This document shows positions 18 through 12,849 of a stretch of DNA of 13,730 nt, piece after piece. The stretch covers positions 1 through 13,730 of the forward strand of contig JBHLLP010000065.1 of the NCBI GenBank assembly GCA_048885525.1, in the 5' to 3' direction. Source of the stretch: Candidatus Hermodarchaeota archaeon. GTDB taxonomy: Archaea > Asgardarchaeota > Lokiarchaeia > Sigyniarchaeales > SOKP01. The notes below the pieces were generated by a model. The model saw only the letters and a list, made by a program, of their open reading frames with translations, ran no database searches and had not been told where the DNA came from. The translations under genes and the position numbers were made by a program. The first letter of the stretch is position 1; each line of letters begins with the position of its first letter.

Positions 18-2264
18 ATGATTAATTGGATTATAATGATATTTTATGAGCTATATGCTTTAGGGTATCTAAATCTCGAACAGATTTTTATAACAAATTT
101 AGTATTATTGGTGATTTTTCGGGGAATATACGTTGCAACCTATTATTTCAATTACTATAAGGATCGAAATAAAGAGTTAGAAGAGGGCATAAAACTCTTT
201 ACTAAGAAAGAGATAATATATTTTAGTATTAAACAAATCTCTATTGTACTTTTTGGGATGCTATACTATCCCATAACGATCTTCATTTGCTTTTATTCGC
301 TACTAGTGAGTTCTAACTTTGGAAAACAAATTGGAGATACCCTTCGCTTAAAACCAGTGATATTTTTGGTAAAACTTATTAACGTCTTTGCTCCACTAAT
401 CGGTATTTTTTGGTTTCTCTTAATTGAAGTAAATTATTATTCAATCGCAGCAATTGGAATTAGTTTACTAGCTTATTTCCATTATGGCTTGAAAAATTCT
501 TCTCTAACACTTTCCAAATTAATAGAAAAGTATGATAGACGTTATTTAAATAAATTTCCGAAAATAGTTCAAATTGTATTGATGTTCCTCTTAATCGCTA
601 CACCCACAACAATATTATCTGTATCTGCTGCTTATACACTTCCAGAGAAATCTACTTATATGGTTGAAATGAGGGATGGTGTAAGACTAGCTACAGATCT
701 TTATCTTGCTCCTGGTTCATTTGGTTCACCTAGACCAGTGATTTTGATTAGAACTCCCTATGGTAAAAATGGAATGGAAATTTATAGAACTTTTTACTCG
801 ACGCAAGATTACCACTTAGTTATGCAAGATTTAAGAGGAACTCACGATTCTGAGGGAGGTGACAAATTCTTAATATTCTCTAAATCATATCAAGATGGTG
901 TTGACACTATTAATTGGATTTTAGATCAAAGCTGGTGTAATGGTAAAATAGCAAGTGCTGGAGCTTCTGCTCTTTGTATCAATCAATATTTTTATGCAGG
1001 AATGAACCCTGAAGGATTAGTAGCACAACAATTATGGTTTGGTACTCCAGAACTATTTGATCATGCGATATATCAGGGATCTTATCATAAATCCTTAGTG
1101 GAAACTTGGATTGAAGGTGTTGCTCCACAAAACTTTGAACATCATATGAATACAATTTTTAGTCTATTTCCTAAAAATGAAGTCTTGTATAACTCCACAT
1201 CCTTATCAATACCTATTGGACCAACTTTTTCCAATGTCAGTGTCGCTGGAATTCATATTGGAGGCTTTTATGATCATTTTTTACAGGGTACCATTGATGG
1301 TTATATCGGATACGATGATTATGGTGCTTCTAGTGCACGTGGTAAACAAAGACTTATAATGGGACCTTGGACTCATGTTAACCTATTTGGTTCAACTCAA
1401 CAAGGGGAATTAACATATCCTTCAAATTCGATTGGATTTGATTTAGCATTTAGCTGGGAACAAGAAGTTTTTGATTACGCGCTTTTGGGCAAACCTACAG
1501 ATTGGGACGGAGCTAGAGTTGCCTATTATCTTATGGGTGATGTAGATACTCCTTCTGATGATTGGAATTATTGGAGATATGCCTATGATTGGCCACTTGA
1601 CCATGTTGATGATAAGTGGTATTTCACTTCTTCGGGGAGTTTGATAAATGACTCTCTTCTACTGACCACCAATAAGAACTTCACATATCTATATGATCCT
1701 CGGGATCCAGTACCAAATAGGGGTGGTCAAAATGAACCTTTTGATATTGAAGGACCTTATGATCAAAGACCTGTTGAAAATAGAGCTGATGTATTAATTT
1801 TCGAAACTCCAGAGTTGACTGATGCTGTTGAAATCGTTGGACGAATTTGGGGCAATTTATTTGTTACATCAAACTGTACGGACACAGATTTCACAGTAAA
1901 ATTAAGTGATGTATATCCAGACGGTCGTTCTATGTTAATAACAGACGGATCGCTAACTAGTCGATCAAGATATAACTATACAACAGATGTATTTATGACG
2001 GGAGATCAAAAAGATGTTTATGAATTATTAGTTGACTGCTGGTCTACTGCATATGTATTTGCTCCAGGACATAGAATACGTGTAGCGATATCAAGTTCGA
2101 ATTATGCTCGCTTTGCAGCAAACCCAAATACAGGAGTGCCATTAGCAACTAATTATTTAAAATACAATATTGCTAACAATACACTTCTTACAGGACCGGA
2201 TTATCCTTCATGTATAATTTTACCACGATTAGTTAATATGAGTGCAACGCATGTGTCTTATTAG
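18..2264 (+). CDS. Membrane-anchored CocE/NonD-family (peptidase S15-like) alpha/beta serine hydrolase with about 6 N-terminal TM helices; probably 5'-truncated
   Basis: Motifs MRDGVRLATDLY, RTPYGK (oxyanion Tyr), QDLRG..DSEG, GKIASAGASAL (Ser nucleophile), GGFYD (Asp), GPWTH (His), YDPRDPVP, DTDFTVKLSDVYPDG and FAPGHRIRVAISSSN (C-terminal PepX_C-like domain). The first ~205 aa are hydrophobic helices. The frame is open upstream to the window edge (TCT CAA TAT ATC CTT ATG). Confidence 0.9.
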   Translation: MINWIIMIFYELYALGYLNLEQIFITNLVLLVIFRGIYVATYYFNYYKDRNKELEEGIKLFTKKEIIYFSIKQISIVLFGMLYYPITIFICFYSLLVSSNFGKQIGDTLRLKPVIFLVKLINVFAPLIGIFWFLLIEVNYYSIAAIGISLLAYFHYGLKNSSLTLSKLIEKYDRRYLNKFPKIVQIVLMFLLIATPTTILSVSAAYTLPEKSTYMVEMRDGVRLATDLYLAPGSFGSPRPVILIRTPYGKNGMEIYRTFYSTQDYHLVMQDLRGTHDSEGGDKFLIFSKSYQDGVDTINWILDQSWCNGKIASAGASALCINQYFYAGMNPEGLVAQQLWFGTPELFDHAIYQGSYHKSLVETWIEGVAPQNFEHHMNTIFSLFPKNEVLYNSTSLSIPIGPTFSNVSVAGIHIGGFYDHFLQGTIDGYIGYDDYGASSARGKQRLIMGPWTHVNLFGSTQQGELTYPSNSIGFDLAFSWEQEVFDYALLGKPTDWDGARVAYYLMGDVDTPSDDWNYWRYAYDWPLDHVDDKWYFTSSGSLINDSLLLTTNKNFTYLYDPRDPVPNRGGQNEPFDIEGPYDQRPVENRADVLIFETPELTDAVEIVGRIWGNLFVTSNCTDTDFTVKLSDVYPDGRSMLITDGSLTSRSRYNYTTDVFMTGDQKDVYELLVDCWSTAYVFAPGHRIRVAISSSNYARFAANPNTGVPLATNYLKYNIANNTLLTGPDYPSCIILPRLVNMSATHVSY

Positions 2265-2292: not shown

Positions 2293-2349
2293 AATAAAAC
2301 TGGGAAATTTTATTTCTAATACAATTACCGAATAGAACTATAAAAAATG

Positions 2350-2376
2350 TAAAAATAAAAAAAAAAATGAAAAAAA
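2350..2376 (-). terminator. T-tract (A-tract on +), putative terminator of the CPBP-PadR-HAAS operon
   Basis: Long A runs (aaaaataaaaaaaaaaatgaaaaaaa) just downstream of the minus-strand stop at 2385; convergent with the + strand T-tract. Confidence 0.5.
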
Positions 2377-2384
2377 TTATTAAT

Positions 2385-3440
2385 TTATTTCAAAAATTTG
2401 TATTTTTCAGCCTTATAAATTCTATAGAAGTCTTCAATTGTAGTTAATATTATTATAGCTATAATTAAACCAGCAACTCCTCTAAAAATAGCATAGAATT
2501 CCGGAGCAATTCCTATATTTATAAGAGTGTCTCCAGGTTCGTTAACAACTAATATTGGAAATATTTCTGGTCGCATCATCATTAAAATAACTACTGATAT
2601 TGATGCGAATTTTATACCTATTGTAATTCCATGAATAATCTGATGAGTAAAGAATTGCCTATTTCCTATTAATCCTCTGCTTAAATCTAAGATCCCTTCA
2701 ACCAAAATGAATAGACCTGCGAATTGTAGGTATAGTAGAAATTCGGCATCAATCAAACTTCTTACAGCGGGAATTGGTAGCACTATGAAAAAAATTCCTA
2801 CAATTATTGCGATAACACCACCAATAATAACTCCAATTGGTTTAATATAGGGTTTTACCGGTCGTTTCTTTATTTCTGAAATTGGAATTCCTTGTTCCCG
2901 TGCGAATTCAAGTTGCTGTTTTTCTTTCTCTCGCAATTTCTTAGATTTAAAATCTTCAGGAAAATAACCCTCCATCGATAATGCTACAAAAATTATAGTG
3001 ATTATCGCAAAGGTTGAAAGACATCCAATTTGTATTCCCTGAATTAAGTTTCCAAATAAATGCCAAAAATCAACATTTCCAAAAATAAAATCTACAATTT
3101 GCGAAATAATAGTAATACCAATAACAATAGCAAACACAATTCCTAGCACTTTGAGATAAGATGGCCACATTTCTTGGCTGATATAGACTTTTGGGGTTCC
3201 TCTTCGTTTATATTCCTTCGCAATGCTTTGTGGGCTCCCCATATGAGAAATTGCCATTTGAACAGTTTTTACTGTAGGTTGCCCTGTTTCAGATAATTCT
3301 TGTGCCTTACTCTTAATGTGTTCTTCAAGTTCAGCCAAAATCTCCTTATGTTCTTTTTTATCTTTTAACCATTCAGGTAATTTCGATTTTACATCTTTCA
3401 GATATTCTTTTATTAGATTATTCATTTCTTTTTCACTCAT
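2385..3440 (-). CDS. HAAS-like (HTH-associated alpha-helical signalling / DUF1700-like) N-terminal domain plus about 6-TM membrane protein
   Basis: N-terminus LIKEYLKDVKSKLP...EILAELEEHI...AISHMGSPQSIAKEY follows the YL..L...E...E...HI...G.P..IA..Y HAAS pattern; six hydrophobic segments follow. Its start overlaps the PadR stop by 8 nt (ATGAGTGA). Confidence 0.8.
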   Translation of the reverse strand: MSEKEMNNLIKEYLKDVKSKLPEWLKDKKEHKEILAELEEHIKSKAQELSETGQPTVKTVQMAISHMGSPQSIAKEYKRRGTPKVYISQEMWPSYLKVLGIVFAIVIGITIISQIVDFIFGNVDFWHLFGNLIQGIQIGCLSTFAIITIIFVALSMEGYFPEDFKSKKLREKEKQQLEFAREQGIPISEIKKRPVKPYIKPIGVIIGGVIAIIVGIFFIVLPIPAVRSLIDAEFLLYLQFAGLFILVEGILDLSRGLIGNRQFFTHQIIHGITIGIKFASISVVILMMMRPEIFPILVVNEPGDTLINIGIAPEFYAIFRGVAGLIIAIIILTTIEDFYRIYKAEKYKFLK

Positions 3441-3975
3441 TTCTTAAACCTCTTTCTTTTAATTCTTTTTCTATATTATTTCCACATACATCACAAAACC
3501 GAAGTTCTAAATTTGAAAGTTCGATTTTGTTAGCACACATTGGACAAAATAAATATTTTTCAGATTTTAAGTTAATGTTTATATCAAATAAAGGTGCGAT
3601 AGCTTCAGACAATTTACTATAAAAGCCAGCAAGATGGTTAAAAACTTTCTTCCCATATTCAGTAACTCTATAAAATTTCCTCCTTCTGCCTGACTCTTCT
3701 CTTTCTGATTTTATAATATTATCTTCTTCTAACTTTCTCAATATTGGATATAGTGTTCCTTCTTCTATAACTAACATTTCATTTGTTTGATCTGTTAAAT
3801 CTTTCAAAATCTTATACCCATGTGAACCTTCTTTACCTGCTTGAATAATTATAGATAATATGCAAAGTGAACTTATACCTCTATTAATCTCAGTTTCTTG
3901 TTTTTCAACAAAATCTCTGAATTCTTGGGAAGCTATTAAAGCCTTCGAATCCAATTCTCTTACACGTTTTATCAT
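3433..3975 (-). CDS. PadR-family winged-helix transcription regulator with C-terminal zinc ribbon
   Basis: RGISSLCILSII...HGYKILKDL...IEEGTLYPILRKLEEDNII...RRRKFYRVTEYGK is the PadR signature; C-terminal CPMC-x14-CDVCG; GGAG SD-like motif upstream of the ATG. Confidence 0.93.
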   Translation of the reverse strand: MIKRVRELDSKALIASQEFRDFVEKQETEINRGISSLCILSIIIQAGKEGSHGYKILKDLTDQTNEMLVIEEGTLYPILRKLEEDNIIKSEREESGRRRKFYRVTEYGKKVFNHLAGFYSKLSEAIAPLFDININLKSEKYLFCPMCANKIELSNLELRFCDVCGNNIEKELKERGLRNE

Positions 3976-4002
3976 ATTTTCAACTCCATATTAATTTTAA
4001 TT

Positions 4003-4905
4003 TTATTTAGAATTACTTGTATTTTGTCTATATAAAGAACTTTCAGGCTGAATTGATATTTCCTGTTGTTTAAAAGTACTACCTTCCTTTTTTTTTCTCC
4101 ATTCGAGGGTTCTCAATGTAAGGATACCAATAAGAAACATCAGAAGAACAAATAGATTTTTTGATTGATAAATAAAATTATATGATACAATGATCGAGCT
4201 ATGAGTAAACATCGCACTTAGCAGATTTTTATTTGATAAATTATAGAAAGAATCAATGATAAAAGAATGACTCAACATTAGCAAATATGAGTAAAGAGAG
4301 ACTTCGAGTCCATTCGCAATATTAATTGGTTGATGCCATAACCACCAATAAGTTCCTAAAAATAAACTACCTATCTCTCTCCCAAATATTCTTTGTAATT
4401 TACCTAATCCATATCCCCGCCAACATGGTTCTTCAAAAAGGGGACTTGAAAGTAAACTAGCAAAAAACAACAATGGAATTAGTCCTATTAAACCATAACT
4501 ATATAATTCTAAAGCTCCTGTTTTTAGAATATTTAGTTGGGTTTCATTACCAATAAAAAAATTAACTATATTACCTGAAATAGTTAATAATGGTATTGTT
4601 AATGCTGCTGGAAATAACCAAATTGTCTTTTCTCCTTTTATTCGAATACTATCAAATATTTCTTTTGCTCCTAATGCACCCCTTAATATTTTATTTAGAA
4701 TAAATAGTGTAATCAACGGTCCAAGTGCTCCAATAGTCTGTCCTACAATGATAGGAATTTTAAATTGAATAATGTTTAATTGATCTAATGCCATAGGAAT
4801 CCATATTAACCAACTAAAAATAATTGCTATTAAAAAGAAAATCAAAGCCTGATATCTTTCAATAAATGTTTTCATGGTTACAACCTTCAATTCTTTATTT
4901 TTCAA
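4003..4905 (-). CDS. CPBP/Abi (CAAX protease type II, Rce1-like) intramembrane glutamic protease
   Basis: Multi-TM protein with FEEPCWRGY (EExxxR), WWLWH (FxxxH-like) and AMFTH motifs. The ORF-track start is TTG at 4905; an alternative ATG lies at 4875. Confidence 0.88.
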   Translation of the reverse strand: MKNKELKVVTMKTFIERYQALIFFLIAIIFSWLIWIPMALDQLNIIQFKIPIIVGQTIGALGPLITLFILNKILRGALGAKEIFDSIRIKGEKTIWLFPAALTIPLLTISGNIVNFFIGNETQLNILKTGALELYSYGLIGLIPLLFFASLLSSPLFEEPCWRGYGLGKLQRIFGREIGSLFLGTYWWLWHQPINIANGLEVSLYSYLLMLSHSFIIDSFYNLSNKNLLSAMFTHSSIIVSYNFIYQSKNLFVLLMFLIGILTLRTLEWRKKKEGSTFKQQEISIQPESSLYRQNTSNSK

Positions 4906-4931
4906 GATTTATTAAAATATATTATTCTACG

Positions 4932-4954
4932 AATACTATATTACATATAGTATT
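4932..4954. promoter_or_regulatory. Perfect inverted repeat AATACTATAT-tac-ATATAGTATT, putative PadR operator
   Basis: 10-bp arms with a 3-bp spacer in the divergent intergenic region upstream of the PadR-containing operon. Confidence 0.7.
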
Positions 4955-4968
4955 TAAACTTTACTATT
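4951..4968 (-). promoter_or_regulatory. Archaeal TATA box (TTTAAATA at 4958-4951) with purine-rich BRE-like upstream sequence, for the CPBP-PadR-HAAS operon
   Basis: The minus strand reads ...tagtaaagTTTAAATActatatg..., about 46 nt upstream of the TTG start at 4905; the box overlaps the palindrome arm. Confidence 0.55.
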
Positions 4969-7721: not shown

Positions 7722-9014
7722 ATGAGCTATTCTGAGCATGAAATGGTAAATAATTATTTAATTCAGGTACATAAAAAATTTCCTGAATGGTTAAAACTAA
7801 AAAAAGAAGAAGCTGATAAAATTTTAAACGATTTAGAAAATCAAATTCTAGATGAAGCAAGAAATATCGCTAATGGGAGAGATCCATCTGATATTGATAT
7901 ACAACAAGCTTTAATACAAATTGGTACTCCAGAAAGTATTGCTAAGTTATATAAGCGTCGAGGTACACCAAAACTATATATAACAGAAGAGTTATTCGAT
8001 TTTTATATTAGATCGATGCTTTTATTCTTCTTAATTGTTATTGGTATCAACCTTATTGTCTCAATTTTTAAGTTTATTTTTCAACCGTTAAAATGGGCAT
8101 TAACTCTAGGAGAAATGTTTTCAGGGATGTGGATTGGATGCTTGATTACAGCTCTTGTAATAACCGTAATATTTGTGTATTTTTCTATGGAAGGGTTTTT
8201 ACCTGAGGATTTTGGTGTCATTCCCTCACGATTGGCTTTATTATTCCCTTTTCATATATCTGAAAAAGGAATACAAGAAACTCGAGAGTATACAAAAGCT
8301 AAATTAGAAGAAGCAAAACAAAAAACAAAGGAAATTATTACACAAGCACGATATCGTACAAGAGAAAAATTAGCTGAAATTAAAGCAGTTACTCAAGAAA
8401 AATTAGCAGTTGCACAATTACATAGAGAACAAAAGTTATTAGAAGCGAAAATGCGTAGAGAAGAAAAATTAGAAAGAGCTAAGCAACGTATAGAGGAAAG
8501 AAAAGAAGTAGCTAAAATGAAAAGAGAATTGAAAAAAAAGCAGGTAGTTTCAATAGGAGAATTAATTTTTGGTACTATCGCAGGATTAATCTTCGGATTA
8601 TTTATAATAATACAACCTTTTGCTGAAATTCCAGGACTCTTTGATCCAAAATTTCTAGCTTGGTTGAAAATCTTTGGATTGTTAATATTATTTAGTGGTT
8701 TAATCAACTTTATTCGATTAATTATTGGAGTTAGAAATCATACGGGGCAACAAGTGATGTTGGTACTAGAAGCTCTCTATTCATTAGTTTATATTCCAAT
8801 CTTTTTAATTCTCTTAAATAATCCTGAGATCTTTCCAATTTCTTTATTTTCAGGGGGAACAATCACTGTAATTCCACATGATACCAATAATATAACTTAC
8901 ATTATTTATTTCTGGGTAATAATTGGAGGAATACTTATTGGGACTCTCGGTAGTATTATAGGGAATTTCTATAAAGTAAGTAAACTTCAAAAATTAAAAA
9001 CAGATTTCTACTAA
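7722..9014 (+). CDS. Second HAAS-like 6-TM membrane protein, paralogue of 2385..3440, with an inserted 11-mer helical repeat loop
   Basis: Shares PEWLK, G(S/T)P.SIAK.YKRRGTPK.YI..E, IGCL, SMEG(Y/F).PEDF and PEIFPI with the 351-aa protein; GAGGA SD-like motif upstream. Confidence 0.82.
   Translation: MSYSEHEMVNNYLIQVHKKFPEWLKLKKEEADKILNDLENQILDEARNIANGRDPSDIDIQQALIQIGTPESIAKLYKRRGTPKLYITEELFDFYIRSMLLFFLIVIGINLIVSIFKFIFQPLKWALTLGEMFSGMWIGCLITALVITVIFVYFSMEGFLPEDFGVIPSRLALLFPFHISEKGIQETREYTKAKLEEAKQKTKEIITQARYRTREKLAEIKAVTQEKLAVAQLHREQKLLEAKMRREEKLERAKQRIEERKEVAKMKRELKKKQVVSIGELIFGTIAGLIFGLFIIIQPFAEIPGLFDPKFLAWLKIFGLLILFSGLINFIRLIIGVRNHTGQQVMLVLEALYSLVYIPIFLILLNNPEIFPISLFSGGTITVIPHDTNNITYIIYFWVIIGGILIGTLGSIIGNFYKVSKLQKLKTDFY
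8280..8543 (+). repeat. Eight degenerate tandem 33-bp / 11-aa repeats within the CDS
   Basis: TREYTKAKLEE/AKQKTKEIITQ/ARYRTREKLAE/IKAVTQEKLAV/AQLHREQKLLE/AKMRREEKLER/AKQRIEERKEV/AKMKRELKKKQ; the DNA word gaaaaattag recurs at multiples of 33 nt. Confidence 0.8.
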
Positions 9015-9113: not shown

Positions 9114-9938
9114 ATGGATTTATCTAAGAATTTAAACCTTAAACTTAAAGAGCTTAAATCGTTTTTAGATGGAAAAAAGGTTATTGTAGCTTTTTCTGGA
9201 GGCGTAGACAGCTCTCTTCTAGCGTATCTATCCAAAAAGTATGCCAAAGATACGTTACTAATAACTGAACGTTCAATTCTTTATCCTGAGGAAGAAGTTA
9301 AAGAAGCATCTAAATTTGCTAATAAACATGGCATAGAACATAAAATTATTAAACGCGATCCTTTAAAAAACAAGGAATTCCAATGTAATCCCTCAAATAG
9401 ATGCTATATCTGTAAAATGGGGTTATATAATGATATAATTGAAATTAAAAATTCAAAAAATTTTGATCTTATATTAGATGGTTCGAATATTGATGATCTT
9501 TCTGATTATAGACCTGGAATGCAAGCTCTGAAAGAATTACAAATATCTACTCCATATATAGATTTTAATATTGATAAAACTGAGATAAGACAAATTTGCA
9601 AATACTATAATTTAGATATTCAAGCTAAACCATCAATGGCATGCTTTTCTTCTCGGATACCTTATGGACAAATTATCAATGAAGAAAAACTATTTATGAT
9701 TAGAGAAGCAGAACGATTCTTAAAAAATACTTTCAACCTAAAACAATTGAGGGTTCGATTACATGAAAATAATTTAGGACGAATTGAATTTTTGGAAAGC
9801 GATCTCCCAAAAGTATTAACTGAAGAAAATATGAAGATCATCAGAAATGCCCTAAAAAAAATTGGATTTATTTATGTTACAGTAGATCTAGCAGGATTTC
9901 GCTCAGGTTCTATGAATGAGGTTCTCAATTTAGATTAA
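9114..9938 (+). CDS. larE: LarE-family ATP-dependent (PP-loop) sulfur transferase
   Basis: AFSGGVDSS PP-loop, NRCYICK, DGSN.DD..DYRPG..A, KPSMACFSSRIPYG, LRVR.H, VTVDLAGFRSGSMNE. Confidence 0.92.
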   Translation: MDLSKNLNLKLKELKSFLDGKKVIVAFSGGVDSSLLAYLSKKYAKDTLLITERSILYPEEEVKEASKFANKHGIEHKIIKRDPLKNKEFQCNPSNRCYICKMGLYNDIIEIKNSKNFDLILDGSNIDDLSDYRPGMQALKELQISTPYIDFNIDKTEIRQICKYYNLDIQAKPSMACFSSRIPYGQIINEEKLFMIREAERFLKNTFNLKQLRVRLHENNLGRIEFLESDLPKVLTEENMKIIRNALKKIGFIYVTVDLAGFRSGSMNEVLNLD

Positions 9939-9953
9939 TCTTTAGCTGCATTT

Positions 9954-11339
9954 TTAACTTTTTATATATTTTATTACTCTATTTCGTTTCATTATCGCAT
10001 TAGCTGCGGCAATTTCTAATTTTTTTTCCATCTCTTCTTTGGATTCTGGTACTTCTTCTCCTATTTCTTGTTTTATTTTAGTGTAAGCCGATTCCCGAAA
10101 TCTAGGTAAAACATTTTCTTGTTCATCTTTAGCAAAGACTATTTTAATTTGATTAGAATCATCAACATATCCAATTTCAGAACACTTTATATCATTTTCT
10201 CGCAAATCTAAAATTATTTTATTTGATACATCTTCAGTACAATAAATTAATAAAGAGTCTAAAGAAACTCCTAAATAATCAACATTTACTTTTTCGAGTA
10301 ATTCAAGAACAATCGGATTTACCAGTTTTCTTACCTCTTGTTCAAAAATAGTTGCACCACATTTAGCTTCATAATTAATCTCATAGAGATCTCCTCTAAG
10401 TCCTCCATTCGTCACATCACACATTGCATGGATATCATTTACGTACTTAGAATTTAAAATAACTTTGCAAGCTTCAAGGAATTTAATATTCATTGTTTCT
10501 TTAACAACATAGTGGTTTCCTGAATATATCGCAGTTGTTGTTATAGTGCCTCCACCAGCACCCTCTGTCATTAAGATTTTATCCCCAACATTAATATTCC
10601 CCCTTGCTAAAATTCGATTACAAACACCAATTGCACTAACACCACCAACTAAACGGTTTCCAATAACCATATCCCCCCCTATACGAAGAGTTGAACCCGC
10701 AGTAATTGGGACTTTCGCTAATTCTGATATTGCAGAAATTCCTGCCATAAAATCAAATAACTTTCCTACATCTGCATCATCACCTAAATGTGCATCAATC
10801 ATAATCGAAATAGGCTTTGCTCCTTTAACATATAGATCTCTGAGGCAAGCTCGGGTTACATGAAATCCACATATGAATGGAAAATCGCTTAGTCGAGAAT
10901 GGATCCCCTCCATTTTCGATACAATAATCAATTCATTCTCATCAAGTTGAATTTCTTGTAGATCTTGTAATCGTACCGCTCCTGCATCATCTAAAGAGGT
11001 AGGTGCCAAATAGGCTTTATACTCAGTTTCTGATAATTCTGCTATTAGTTTATGGACAAAGAAATCTCCACTTCCTCTACATCCAACACCTTGCTGACCT
11101 ACCGACACATTAGCCCTATTTAGATCTAAAATCTCTTTAATGAAAGGATGAGTTACTTTATTTATATCACTTTTATGACATTCTTCTAAAATTGCTTTAG
11201 CATACTTTCTAGCTAAATTATCATCTATTTCTTTAAAATCATGATATTCATGAACCAATCTTTCAAGAATTTGTTGATCAGAATATCCCTTTCGTATTAA
11301 ATTCCTAGTTAATCCTTCTAAATCGCTCAAATTGCTCAA
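9954..11339 (-). CDS. AIR synthase-related (PurM/HypE-fold) archaeal protein, MJ0640-like, function unknown
   Basis: DLEG start, GVGCRGSGDFFVH, LDDAG, EGIHSRLSDFPF..GFHVTRA.LRDLYVKGAKP, GDKILMTEGAGGGT, HAMCDVTNGGLRGD. TTG start at 11339; the TTG at 11330 is better spaced from the GAAGGA SD-like motif. Confidence 0.82.
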   Translation of the reverse strand: MSNLSDLEGLTRNLIRKGYSDQQILERLVHEYHDFKEIDDNLARKYAKAILEECHKSDINKVTHPFIKEILDLNRANVSVGQQGVGCRGSGDFFVHKLIAELSETEYKAYLAPTSLDDAGAVRLQDLQEIQLDENELIIVSKMEGIHSRLSDFPFICGFHVTRACLRDLYVKGAKPISIMIDAHLGDDADVGKLFDFMAGISAISELAKVPITAGSTLRIGGDMVIGNRLVGGVSAIGVCNRILARGNINVGDKILMTEGAGGGTITTTAIYSGNHYVVKETMNIKFLEACKVILNSKYVNDIHAMCDVTNGGLRGDLYEINYEAKCGATIFEQEVRKLVNPIVLELLEKVNVDYLGVSLDSLLIYCTEDVSNKIILDLRENDIKCSEIGYVDDSNQIKIVFAKDEQENVLPRFRESAYTKIKQEIGEEVPESKEEMEKKLEIAAANAIMKRNRVIKYIKS

Positions 11340-11445
11340 ATCCTTCTAAATCATAAAAAGCTATGAATAAAAGTATATAATACATTTAAATTATTTTGAA
11401 AATTCTTATTTATAGTTTAGACTACTCTAGATAGAAAAGATAAAC

Positions 11446-12456
11446 ATGACTTCTTTAAGAATAACAACTCCCTGTCGCATTCATCTTTCTTTAATAGACG
11501 AGAATGGATACACTGGTAGAGTGGATGGTGGTATTGGACTTATGTTAGACCGTCCGAACGTTGTATTCGAAGCCTCCAACAGTGCTAAAGAATTTAAAAT
11601 TGAAGCTCATAGATATTATCGAGAATCAATCGAGGTCATCAATGAAATAGCTTCAAAGGTTTTCAAAAGGCATAATATAAGTAATAAAAATTTTCACTTC
11701 AATCTTAAAAGATATTTCCCCTCACATGTGGGATTGGGCTCGAAAACTCAATTATCTTTAGCTATAGCTACAGCAATAACAAAATTGAAGAATATTAATC
11801 ATTTAACTCACAAAGATTTAACTAAATTAGTAGAAAGAGGAGGCACTTCTGGAATCGGGTGGAGAGGTTTTGAAACAGGAGGTTTTATTTTAGATGGTGG
11901 ACATGATTTTGGGAAAGGGAAAGAAAAGGAAACCTTTTTACCATCATCCGCTTCAACTTCAGCTAATCCTGCATTGACAATTTTTAGATATAATATTCCT
12001 GAAAATTGGAGATTCGTATTGGTTATTCCTAATGTGAAGAAAGGAGCATATGGAGATGAAGAAGTTAGTGTTTTTCAAAATTATGCCCCAATCCCTAGAA
12101 ATGAAGTAAATGAAGTATCTCACCAAATAATAATGAAGATTATTCCAGGAATTATAAAAAATGAATTAAAATGCTTTGGAGAAGGATTAAAAAGAATTCA
12201 GGGTATTGGTTTTAAAAAAATAGAAATCGAGTTACAACACGAAGTAGTTAAAGATCTTTTAAAATTTTTTGATCAATATGGATTGAAGGCATATGGTATG
12301 TCATCTTTTGGGCCCAGTGTTATTGGAATTGTAGAATCTGACTCAGAAGCAGAAATTTTATTGAGAGAAGTCCAAAAGAATCAAAAAAATGGTGGAGGAC
12401 ATATCTATATATGTAAACCAAATAATAAAGGAGCTAAAATAGAATATATAGATTGA
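11446..12456 (+). CDS. mptG: Beta-ribofuranosylaminobenzene 5'-phosphate (beta-RFAP) synthase, GHMP-kinase fold, methanopterin biosynthesis
   Basis: TPCRIHLSLID..G..GRVDGGIG, PSHVGLGSKTQLSLA, RGGTSGIG..GFE.GGFILDGGH, FLPSSAS, GFKKIE, GMSSFGP. Confidence 0.92.
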   Translation: MTSLRITTPCRIHLSLIDENGYTGRVDGGIGLMLDRPNVVFEASNSAKEFKIEAHRYYRESIEVINEIASKVFKRHNISNKNFHFNLKRYFPSHVGLGSKTQLSLAIATAITKLKNINHLTHKDLTKLVERGGTSGIGWRGFETGGFILDGGHDFGKGKEKETFLPSSASTSANPALTIFRYNIPENWRFVLVIPNVKKGAYGDEEVSVFQNYAPIPRNEVNEVSHQIIMKIIPGIIKNELKCFGEGLKRIQGIGFKKIEIELQHEVVKDLLKFFDQYGLKAYGMSSFGPSVIGIVESDSEAEILLREVQKNQKNGGGHIYICKPNNKGAKIEYID

Positions 12457-12462
12457 TAATAA

Positions 12463-12849
12463 ATGCCTAAGTCTAACGAAAAAATCTACTTTTCACCTGA
12501 TATAAGTGAAAGAGAAAGAGCTTGTTTTGAGACTGGTATCAAATTAGGAGCTCTTTATCATATACTCTGTGGTATTCCAATAACTTCAGACGAGAAAATT
12601 ATTAATTCTATTGAAAAAGGTATTGAAGCAGCAATTTCTTGCCAACCTTATGTAAAATCAATAAGAATTATATTAGATAAAGACAAGATTACCAAGAATA
12701 AATCTACAGAATTCGATTATGATGAAATATCCGGGAAAATTATTCGTGCTGAATTAACTTTAAAATATGAAGCTGTTGAAGTTATCGCAAAAATTGACTG
12801 GATTGAAGATTTACAATATCCTCTAATGTATATTGAAAAAATTCAATAG
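12463..12849 (+). CDS. mptD: Archaeal 7,8-dihydroneopterin aldolase (DUF381/MJ0408 family)
   Basis: SERERACFETGIKLGALYH, IE.AI..QPYV and C-terminal EDLQYPLMYI are family signatures; it lies 6 nt downstream of mptG. Confidence 0.88.
   Translation: MPKSNEKIYFSPDISERERACFETGIKLGALYHILCGIPITSDEKIINSIEKGIEAAISCQPYVKSIRIILDKDKITKNKSTEFDYDEISGKIIRAELTLKYEAVEVIAKIDWIEDLQYPLMYIEKIQ

Follow-up and report, generated by a model that had tools for sequence, protein, structure and literature searches.

A PadR-HAAS gene pair with a putative operator over its TATA box and an optional CPBP protease gene in an Asgard archaeon

The window analysed here, a 13,730-nucleotide (nt) stretch of a Candidatus Hermodarchaeota archaeon assembly (contig JBHLLP010000065.1), holds a locus of three genes encoding a CPBP-family intramembrane protease, a PadR-type repressor and a membrane protein with a HAAS domain. 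Coordinates are positions in this window, and all genes and signals of the operon are given on the minus strand. The first gene (4003..4905, 300 amino acids (aa)) encodes a CPBP (Rce1-like) intramembrane glutamic protease, matched above the cut-off by the Pfam Rce1-like/CPBP family (E 7e-7). Its true start is probably ATG 4875, giving 290 aa, because relatives without CPBP have untranslated leader sequence where TTG 4905 falls in the alignment, and the public gene call is also 290 aa. The second (3433..3975, 180 aa; Pfam PadR E 4e-20) encodes a winged-helix repressor of the PadR subfamily 2 type with an N-terminal extension and a C-terminal four-cysteine zinc ribbon (CPMC...CDVC). The third (2385..3440, 351 aa) encodes a protein, hereafter HAAS-6TM, in which a HAAS domain (aa 12-76, E 1e-8) is followed by six hydrophobic helices. 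A 27-nt gap separates CPBP from padR (3976-4002), and padR overlaps the HAAS-6TM gene by 8 nt (3433-3440). Archaeal promoters follow a known consensus, and on that basis a purine run resembling the B recognition element, together with a TATA box (AGTAAAG-TTTAAATA, 4951..4965), is the candidate promoter; the TATA-like TTTAAATA itself lies at 4958-4951 and is kept in relatives. The padR ribosome-binding site GGAG (3984..3987) is retained behind the CPBP gene, and an oligo-T tract that would act as a terminator (2341..2376) lies 3' of the HAAS-6TM stop codon. The preliminary description of this DNA had reported three co-oriented genes with this gap, overlap, TATA box and T-tract, and all are present. 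The layout suggests that the three genes are co-transcribed. Scans for sigma-70 promoters and hairpin terminators, models not suited to archaea, returned matches at chance level only. The window comes from a Lokiarchaeia (Promethearchaeota) genome, and the relatives whose PadR is 86-93% identical are assemblies of this group as well. In five padR orthologues (L069, L072, L077, L078, L079) ATT stands at the expected ATG start, directly after the GGAG site.

A palindromic putative operator, AATACTAT-N7-ATAGTATT (4932..4954), overlaps the TATA box, and a third, degenerate half-site (4919..4926) lies near the expected transcription start. Matches to the operator were scored with a weight matrix, and loci were counted at more than 14 bits. 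The window's site (27.8 bits) is the only strong copy in its genome, the second (C16:56690, 18.6 bits) being at shuffle level. Across the class there is about one operator per genome, well over the reversed-pattern control. The regulon would therefore be close to the operon itself, as for the autorepressed PadR operons of the LltR/LstR type in Listeria, which have a small regulon (PMC6624303). The sequence differs from the ATGT/ACAT motif of PadR subfamily 2 (PMC3506622), and the palindrome is conserved over the TATA box. This position, together with the Listeria precedent, suggests that a PadR dimer binds the palindrome and represses its own promoter. An operator precedes padR in 113 of 137 loci without CPBP. 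Where CPBP is present the operator is 5' of the CPBP gene in every locus, and in 9 of 10 there is none before padR; the exception, L099, has one before each gene (L099:612 and L099:1692). Alignment reveals one shared promoter and leader, followed by padR in some genomes and by CPBP in others. Judged by its place between the promoter/operator and the padR ribosome-binding site, CPBP is hence co-regulated with padR. A 17-bit match to the Asgard operator also stands directly 5' of padR in a bacterial PadR-HAAS locus (L192:2610-2632).

The PadR protein carries the motifs of subfamily 2 (YGYE-like, EGTLYPxLxRLE and GxRKYY) as HGYK, EGTLYPILRKLE and RRRKFY, on a winged helix-turn-helix fold whose top Foldseek matches are 4EJO, 1XMA and LmrR. 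In size it departs from the subfamily (~110 aa with a single C-terminal helix), having 180 aa with the N-terminal extra segment and the ribbon. The ribbon cysteines C144, C147, C161 and C164 (codons within 3484..3546) are invariant in 77 orthologues, and a four-cysteine ribbon was absent from the examined bacterial and short archaeal PadR partners. The HAAS domain scores 35.9 bits against a Pfam cut-off of 27; it has three helices in the structure model and the GxP kink, whose G68 and P70 are invariant among the homologues aligned. The transmembrane (TM) helices of HAAS-6TM span residues 98-116, 138-156, 202-220, 229-247, 268-286 and 317-335. The positive-inside rule gives an N-in/C-in topology with HAAS in the cytoplasm and outer loops of only ~8-30 aa, and the linker ahead of TM1 is highly conserved. 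Fold searches with HAAS-6TM gave no Foldseek match at E 0.001 and only generic helical bundles with VIA-align; its Atlas matches (< 0.9) are unnamed Bacillota clusters.

Surveys of related genomes indicate which of these genes belong together. Among 150 distinct zinc-ribbon PadRs gathered, a HAAS gene lies directly 3' of padR in 147 of the 148 loci with enough flanking sequence. The pair is spread across Lokiarchaeia and also found in Heimdallarchaeota and Hodarchaeales. Both cultured Lokis, Promethearchaeum syntrophicum (QEE17330-17331) and Ca. Lokiarchaeum ossiferum, carry it. Further Asgard families pair HAAS with shorter PadRs, and bacteria such as Anaerolineaceae carry a PadR-HAAS pair as well. 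By gene order, the core of the system is the two-gene pair of zinc-ribbon PadR and HAAS-6TM, and CPBP lies outside it. The region around the pair is often rearranged among relatives. The locus is an archaeal variant of the HAAS-PadR dyad, a known but experimentally thin kind of system whose forms include 6TM fusions and for which signalling through the GxP groove was proposed (Ravi et al. 2024, mSystems; PMC11237479). As there, a stand-alone PadR gene goes with a gene whose membrane-protein product combines an N-terminal three-helix GxP HAAS domain with an uncharacterised 6TM domain; the window's system differs in being archaeal, in its TATA-overlapping operator, in the N-terminal extension and four-cysteine ribbon of PadR and in the optional CPBP.

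Several variants of the pair were observed. Three loci (L187, L188, L189) hold second PadR-HAAS pairs with the same operator, in which the membrane protein has 650-700 aa and a tandem HAAS-TM repeat. Elsewhere two PadR genes, each with an operator, are followed by three tandem HAAS genes (L163:3769-8331). Another Asgard type consists of a 6-8TM gene, a short PadR and a HAAS protein of only ~150 aa (L257, L258, L260, L262, L264). One CPBP-bearing copy has its HAAS gene cut to 151 aa (L053:6536-6991, genome G006), with two further padR copies elsewhere on the chromosome, either a real duplication or an assembly artefact. In L132 an AN1-finger 6TM gene stands 5' of padR. The idea that it is a second protease in the CPBP slot was rejected, as a TATA/operator-like stretch lies between the two genes and it matches no protease family.

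The preliminary description had read the three genes as a dedicated module in which the protease cleaves the sensor to switch PadR. As a dedicated module, that proposal fails the first check set for it, a gene-neighbourhood survey, in which CPBP was absent from most homologous PadR-HAAS loci: among 161 genomes of the class, padR occurs in 114 and CPBP in 7 (61-74% identity, or the query itself), a share of ~6% that is a rough figure as these genomes are incomplete and related. CPBP was found in 0 of 60 further class-wide loci and 0 of 36 loci of other Asgard families, and the window's nearest relatives (L095, L051) are without it. Four CPBP rows require four changes on the PadR+HAAS tree, and for CPBP and padR the synonymous distances are largely in agreement (exceptions L098 and L099), which suggests a history of repeated loss plus some transfer. 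L099 has a CPBP close to the window's and a distant PadR (58%), pointing to transfer of a CPBP cassette.

The protease gene is nonetheless not randomly placed. All 10 close CPBP orthologues with known context lie before padR; orthologues share 54-80% identity, occupy the same slot in at least two genera and were not seen elsewhere in these genomes. Hodarchaeales CPBP homologues (45-47%) lie 3' of another pair, made up of a 126-aa PadR lacking the ribbon and a HAAS-6TM only 23% identical to the window's, although such adjacency was found in a minority (2 of 12 decidable genomes). Elsewhere in the wider CPBP clade the genes are solitary or arranged in CPBP tandems, and the clade tree does not settle the Loki and Hodarchaeales branches as sisters. 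Each tested genome has 7-22 other CPBP genes (13 in the window's genome), so a single case of adjacency may arise by chance; that one small clade has two linked branches suggests that co-regulation has been selected for. No other full-length CPBP subfamily turned up when all PadR loci were scanned for the motifs, and broken genes may be under-counted, the profile having missed a fragment in P. syntrophicum. Literature searches joining PadR with CPBP gave no match.

The P. syntrophicum fragment is a disrupted CPBP gene belonging to another subfamily (L181:3595-3771, G038:C1 ~2930091-2930261; 58-aa frame, Pfam E 1.4e-9). It ends ~145 base pairs 5' of the PadR-HAAS operator, outside operator control, by chance or as a third linkage. 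In Hodarchaeales an ABC ATPase, an ABC-2 permease, a short PadR, HAAS-6TM and CPBP form an operon on one strand (L265:740-4870, L266:731-4903), an assembly that fits a membrane-defence output set.

How might the HAAS domain act on PadR? A model of two PadR and two HAAS(1-92) chains had a score of 0.64, whereas the best of three controls had 0.01. In a benchmark, 58 of 80 solved complexes attained this mark, as did 2 of 110 mismatched pairs; the counts apply only roughly to the PadR-HAAS model. Contacts agree to at least 92% between runs, with a partner pLDDT (per-residue model confidence) of at least 79. No solved relative of HAAS was found by sequence or fold, a PDB search by sequence having returned none for the HAAS part, which makes it less likely that the model merely reproduces a known complex. 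On the PadR side the predicted interface comprises residues 52-57, 71-84 and 97-100, where subfamily 2 has its three DNA-binding motifs (PMC3506622). On the HAAS side (aa 12-81, codons 3198..3407) it comprises an acidic helix (33-45), the HMGS groove and residues 72-81, with E33, E37, E40, H41, HMGS 66-69, I73, E76 and Y77 as predicted contacts. The HAAS domain is thus predicted to clasp the PadR recognition helix. Among 129 paired HAAS proteins H41 is 98% and E76 90% conserved; in 33 mostly orphan paralogues, a comparison in which a few rows are mis-sorted, each is kept in 12%, with mainly Gln and Ile/Leu in their places. The orphans still keep the GxP, RGTPK and SMEG-PEDF motifs. One lies in the window itself on the plus strand (7722..9014), with no PadR and no operator and with H41, E76 and E33 replaced. 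The preliminary claim that HAAS binds PadR stands as predicted binding, supported by the model and by the near-universal pairing, and suggests that HAAS-6TM is a membrane-tethered anti-repressor. Ravi et al. give no interface (PMC11237479), whereas the model here puts HAAS on the DNA-recognition helix, and no description of a HAAS-PadR interface was found in the literature searched.

The window's orphan HAAS-6TM, which many relatives keep close to the pair, has a long K/E-rich cytoplasmic insert. Its partner may be a different protein, or its target may be the paired sensor.

Taken together, we moderately favour an autoregulated PadR-HAAS switch in which HAAS acts as anti-repressor and CPBP is an optional output. 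A PadR dimer on the palindrome over its own TATA box would keep the operon repressed. HAAS would grip the same recognition helix, making DNA and HAAS mutually exclusive partners of PadR. A membrane signal at the TM bundle could then alter the amount of HAAS free for capture, and capture of PadR would derepress the operon and any cargo. CPBP would be such cargo, expressed whenever the switch is on, and the switch would work without it. On this logic cleavage would not be the general trigger, as most systems are without the protease; where present, CPBP is most simply an output, and probably a co-regulated accessory rather than the trigger. That output would most likely serve a membrane-stress response, for example clearing or neutralising membrane peptides. 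The closest experimental parallels are LltR-Lmo0600(DUF1700)-Lmo0601 and LstR-Lmo0421 of Listeria, autorepressed PadR operons with a small regulon and a downstream HAAS/DUF1700 membrane gene (Hauf et al. 2019; PMC6624303). Their membrane domains differ, they have no CPBP, and repression is experimental there and deduced here.

Some points weigh against this account. The orphan paralogues probably go back to a single duplication and hence constitute one natural experiment, and in them W43, E48 and P93, which lie outside the interface, have changed too. The recurrence of the CPBP clade beside a second, distant PadR-HAAS pair is as compatible with CPBP acting directly on the sensor as with an output role. 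Finally, the eLife lipocone paper has the signal release PadR from HAAS, the opposite sign (PMC12419801).

A direct role could take the form of optional regulated proteolysis, which we consider unlikely. CPBP, where present, would cut HAAS-6TM near TM1, and either the freed soluble HAAS would strip PadR as an amplifier or the anti-repressor would be destroyed as a reset. With equally little confidence, the clade would have entered Asgard PadR-HAAS operons on two occasions owing to its ability to cut the HAAS anti-repressor, adding an optional proteolysis step to an archaeal repressor. The window's protease has the motifs EEPCWR, WWLWHQP and HSSII. Motif 1 (EExxxR) and motif 2 (FxxxH) are represented by EEPCWR and WWLWH in all orthologues and the motif-4 His is intact, under purifying selection (ratio of nonsynonymous to synonymous substitution, dN/dS, 0.13-0.34 against eight orthologues). 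The placement inside the operon of all 10 close orthologues with known context, the related clade at the second pair and the conserved linker before TM1 also speak for cleavage, and the other CPBP genes of each genome could act in trans elsewhere. Against it, CPBP was not found in 107 of the 114 PadR-bearing genomes, closest relatives included; the Asn/Asp of motif 4 (HxxxN/D) is replaced by a hydrophobic or small residue clade-wide; the two host sensors are only 23% identical; and wider-clade CPBPs occur alone or in CPBP tandems. CPBP paralogues in the window's own genome retain the motif-4 Asn. The closest solved relative, MmRce1 (PDB 4CAD), is a weak match (E 0.044), and the NCBIfam MmRce1 family matches at E 2.5e-4, far under its cut-off; the motif-4 change is a further difference from it.

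Regulated intramembrane proteolysis in Bacillus (PrsW-RsiW-SigW) likewise joins a CPBP-related protease to a membrane-tethered inhibitor of a transcription factor. There the anti-sigma factor RsiW crosses the membrane once and bears an outer domain, and loss of RsiW is activating. In the window's system the candidate substrate is polytopic, with six TM helices and short outer loops, and has no outer domain of the kind clipped by PrsW at site 1; the transcription factor concerned is a repressor, and the Rce1-like protease is missing in ~94% of genomes with the pair, although other CPBPs could act in trans. By the anti-repressor logic of the model, destruction of the sensor would turn the operon off.

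Alternatively, CPBP might tune the 6TM sensor without catalysis, by binding it within the membrane, as Abx1 and CflP bind CovS in group B Streptococcus; we consider this unlikely as well. Abx1 works without catalytic E/H residues (PMC3578759), and CflP, too, is a CPBP that acts without catalysis; abx1 is frequently disrupted from one strain to another, a patchiness resembling that seen here (PMC13692083). The degenerate motif 4 and the recurrent linkage to PadR-HAAS pairs would suit such a role, but EE and both His are retained clade-wide. The likeness of a CPBP-family accessory to a membrane sensor is by analogy only, since the streptococcal partner is a histidine kinase with binding shown, whereas contact with the sensor is hypothetical here.

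It is less probable still that PadR itself senses a small molecule, metal or redox state through its dimer pocket or zinc ribbon, with HAAS-6TM and CPBP as plain outputs and HAAS not controlling PadR. LmrR-type PadRs, the nearest solved folds, are ligand sensors, and the lltR operon is said to have Lmo0600 as its effector (PMC6624303); the invariance of the ribbon cysteines is in keeping with this. The controlled complex model and the loss of predicted contacts in orphan HAAS proteins argue otherwise, as do ribbon-less PadRs that partner the same sensor type, and DNA binding by bcPadR1 was unresponsive to inducer in vitro (PMC3506622). A chance insertion of CPBP hitch-hiking on the promoter, with no functional tie, is highly improbable: the abundance of CPBP genes and frequent rearrangement around the pair would permit it, but not readily one slot shared between genera by similar genes under purifying selection and confined to it, nor the second linkage in Hodarchaeales.

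To our knowledge, few transcription circuits have been described in Asgard archaea. The autoregulated PadR-HAAS switch would offer one whose regulator-operator pair is conserved over several Asgard classes, cultured strains included. HAAS-PadR pairs are widespread and have so far been proposed from gene neighbourhoods only; the model offers a testable interface with named residues, in which a small soluble domain would block the recognition helix of PadR, and to which the orphan paralogue in the same window provides a natural loss-of-contact counterpart. The protease is a secondary, optional feature that would gain much weight only if cleavage were demonstrated.

The surroundings of the operon are partly conserved. 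An S15/PepX-type peptidase gene with an N-terminal membrane region (18-2264, plus strand) is convergent on the operon in many loci of the same genus. Around the pair, the family conserves a set of genes for PP-loop (LarE-like), AIR-synthase/ThiL-fold, beta-RFAP synthase and dihydroneopterin aldolase proteins (9114-12849). In L099 a gelsolin-repeat protein is encoded on the same strand immediately 3' of the HAAS gene (L099:3499-4452).

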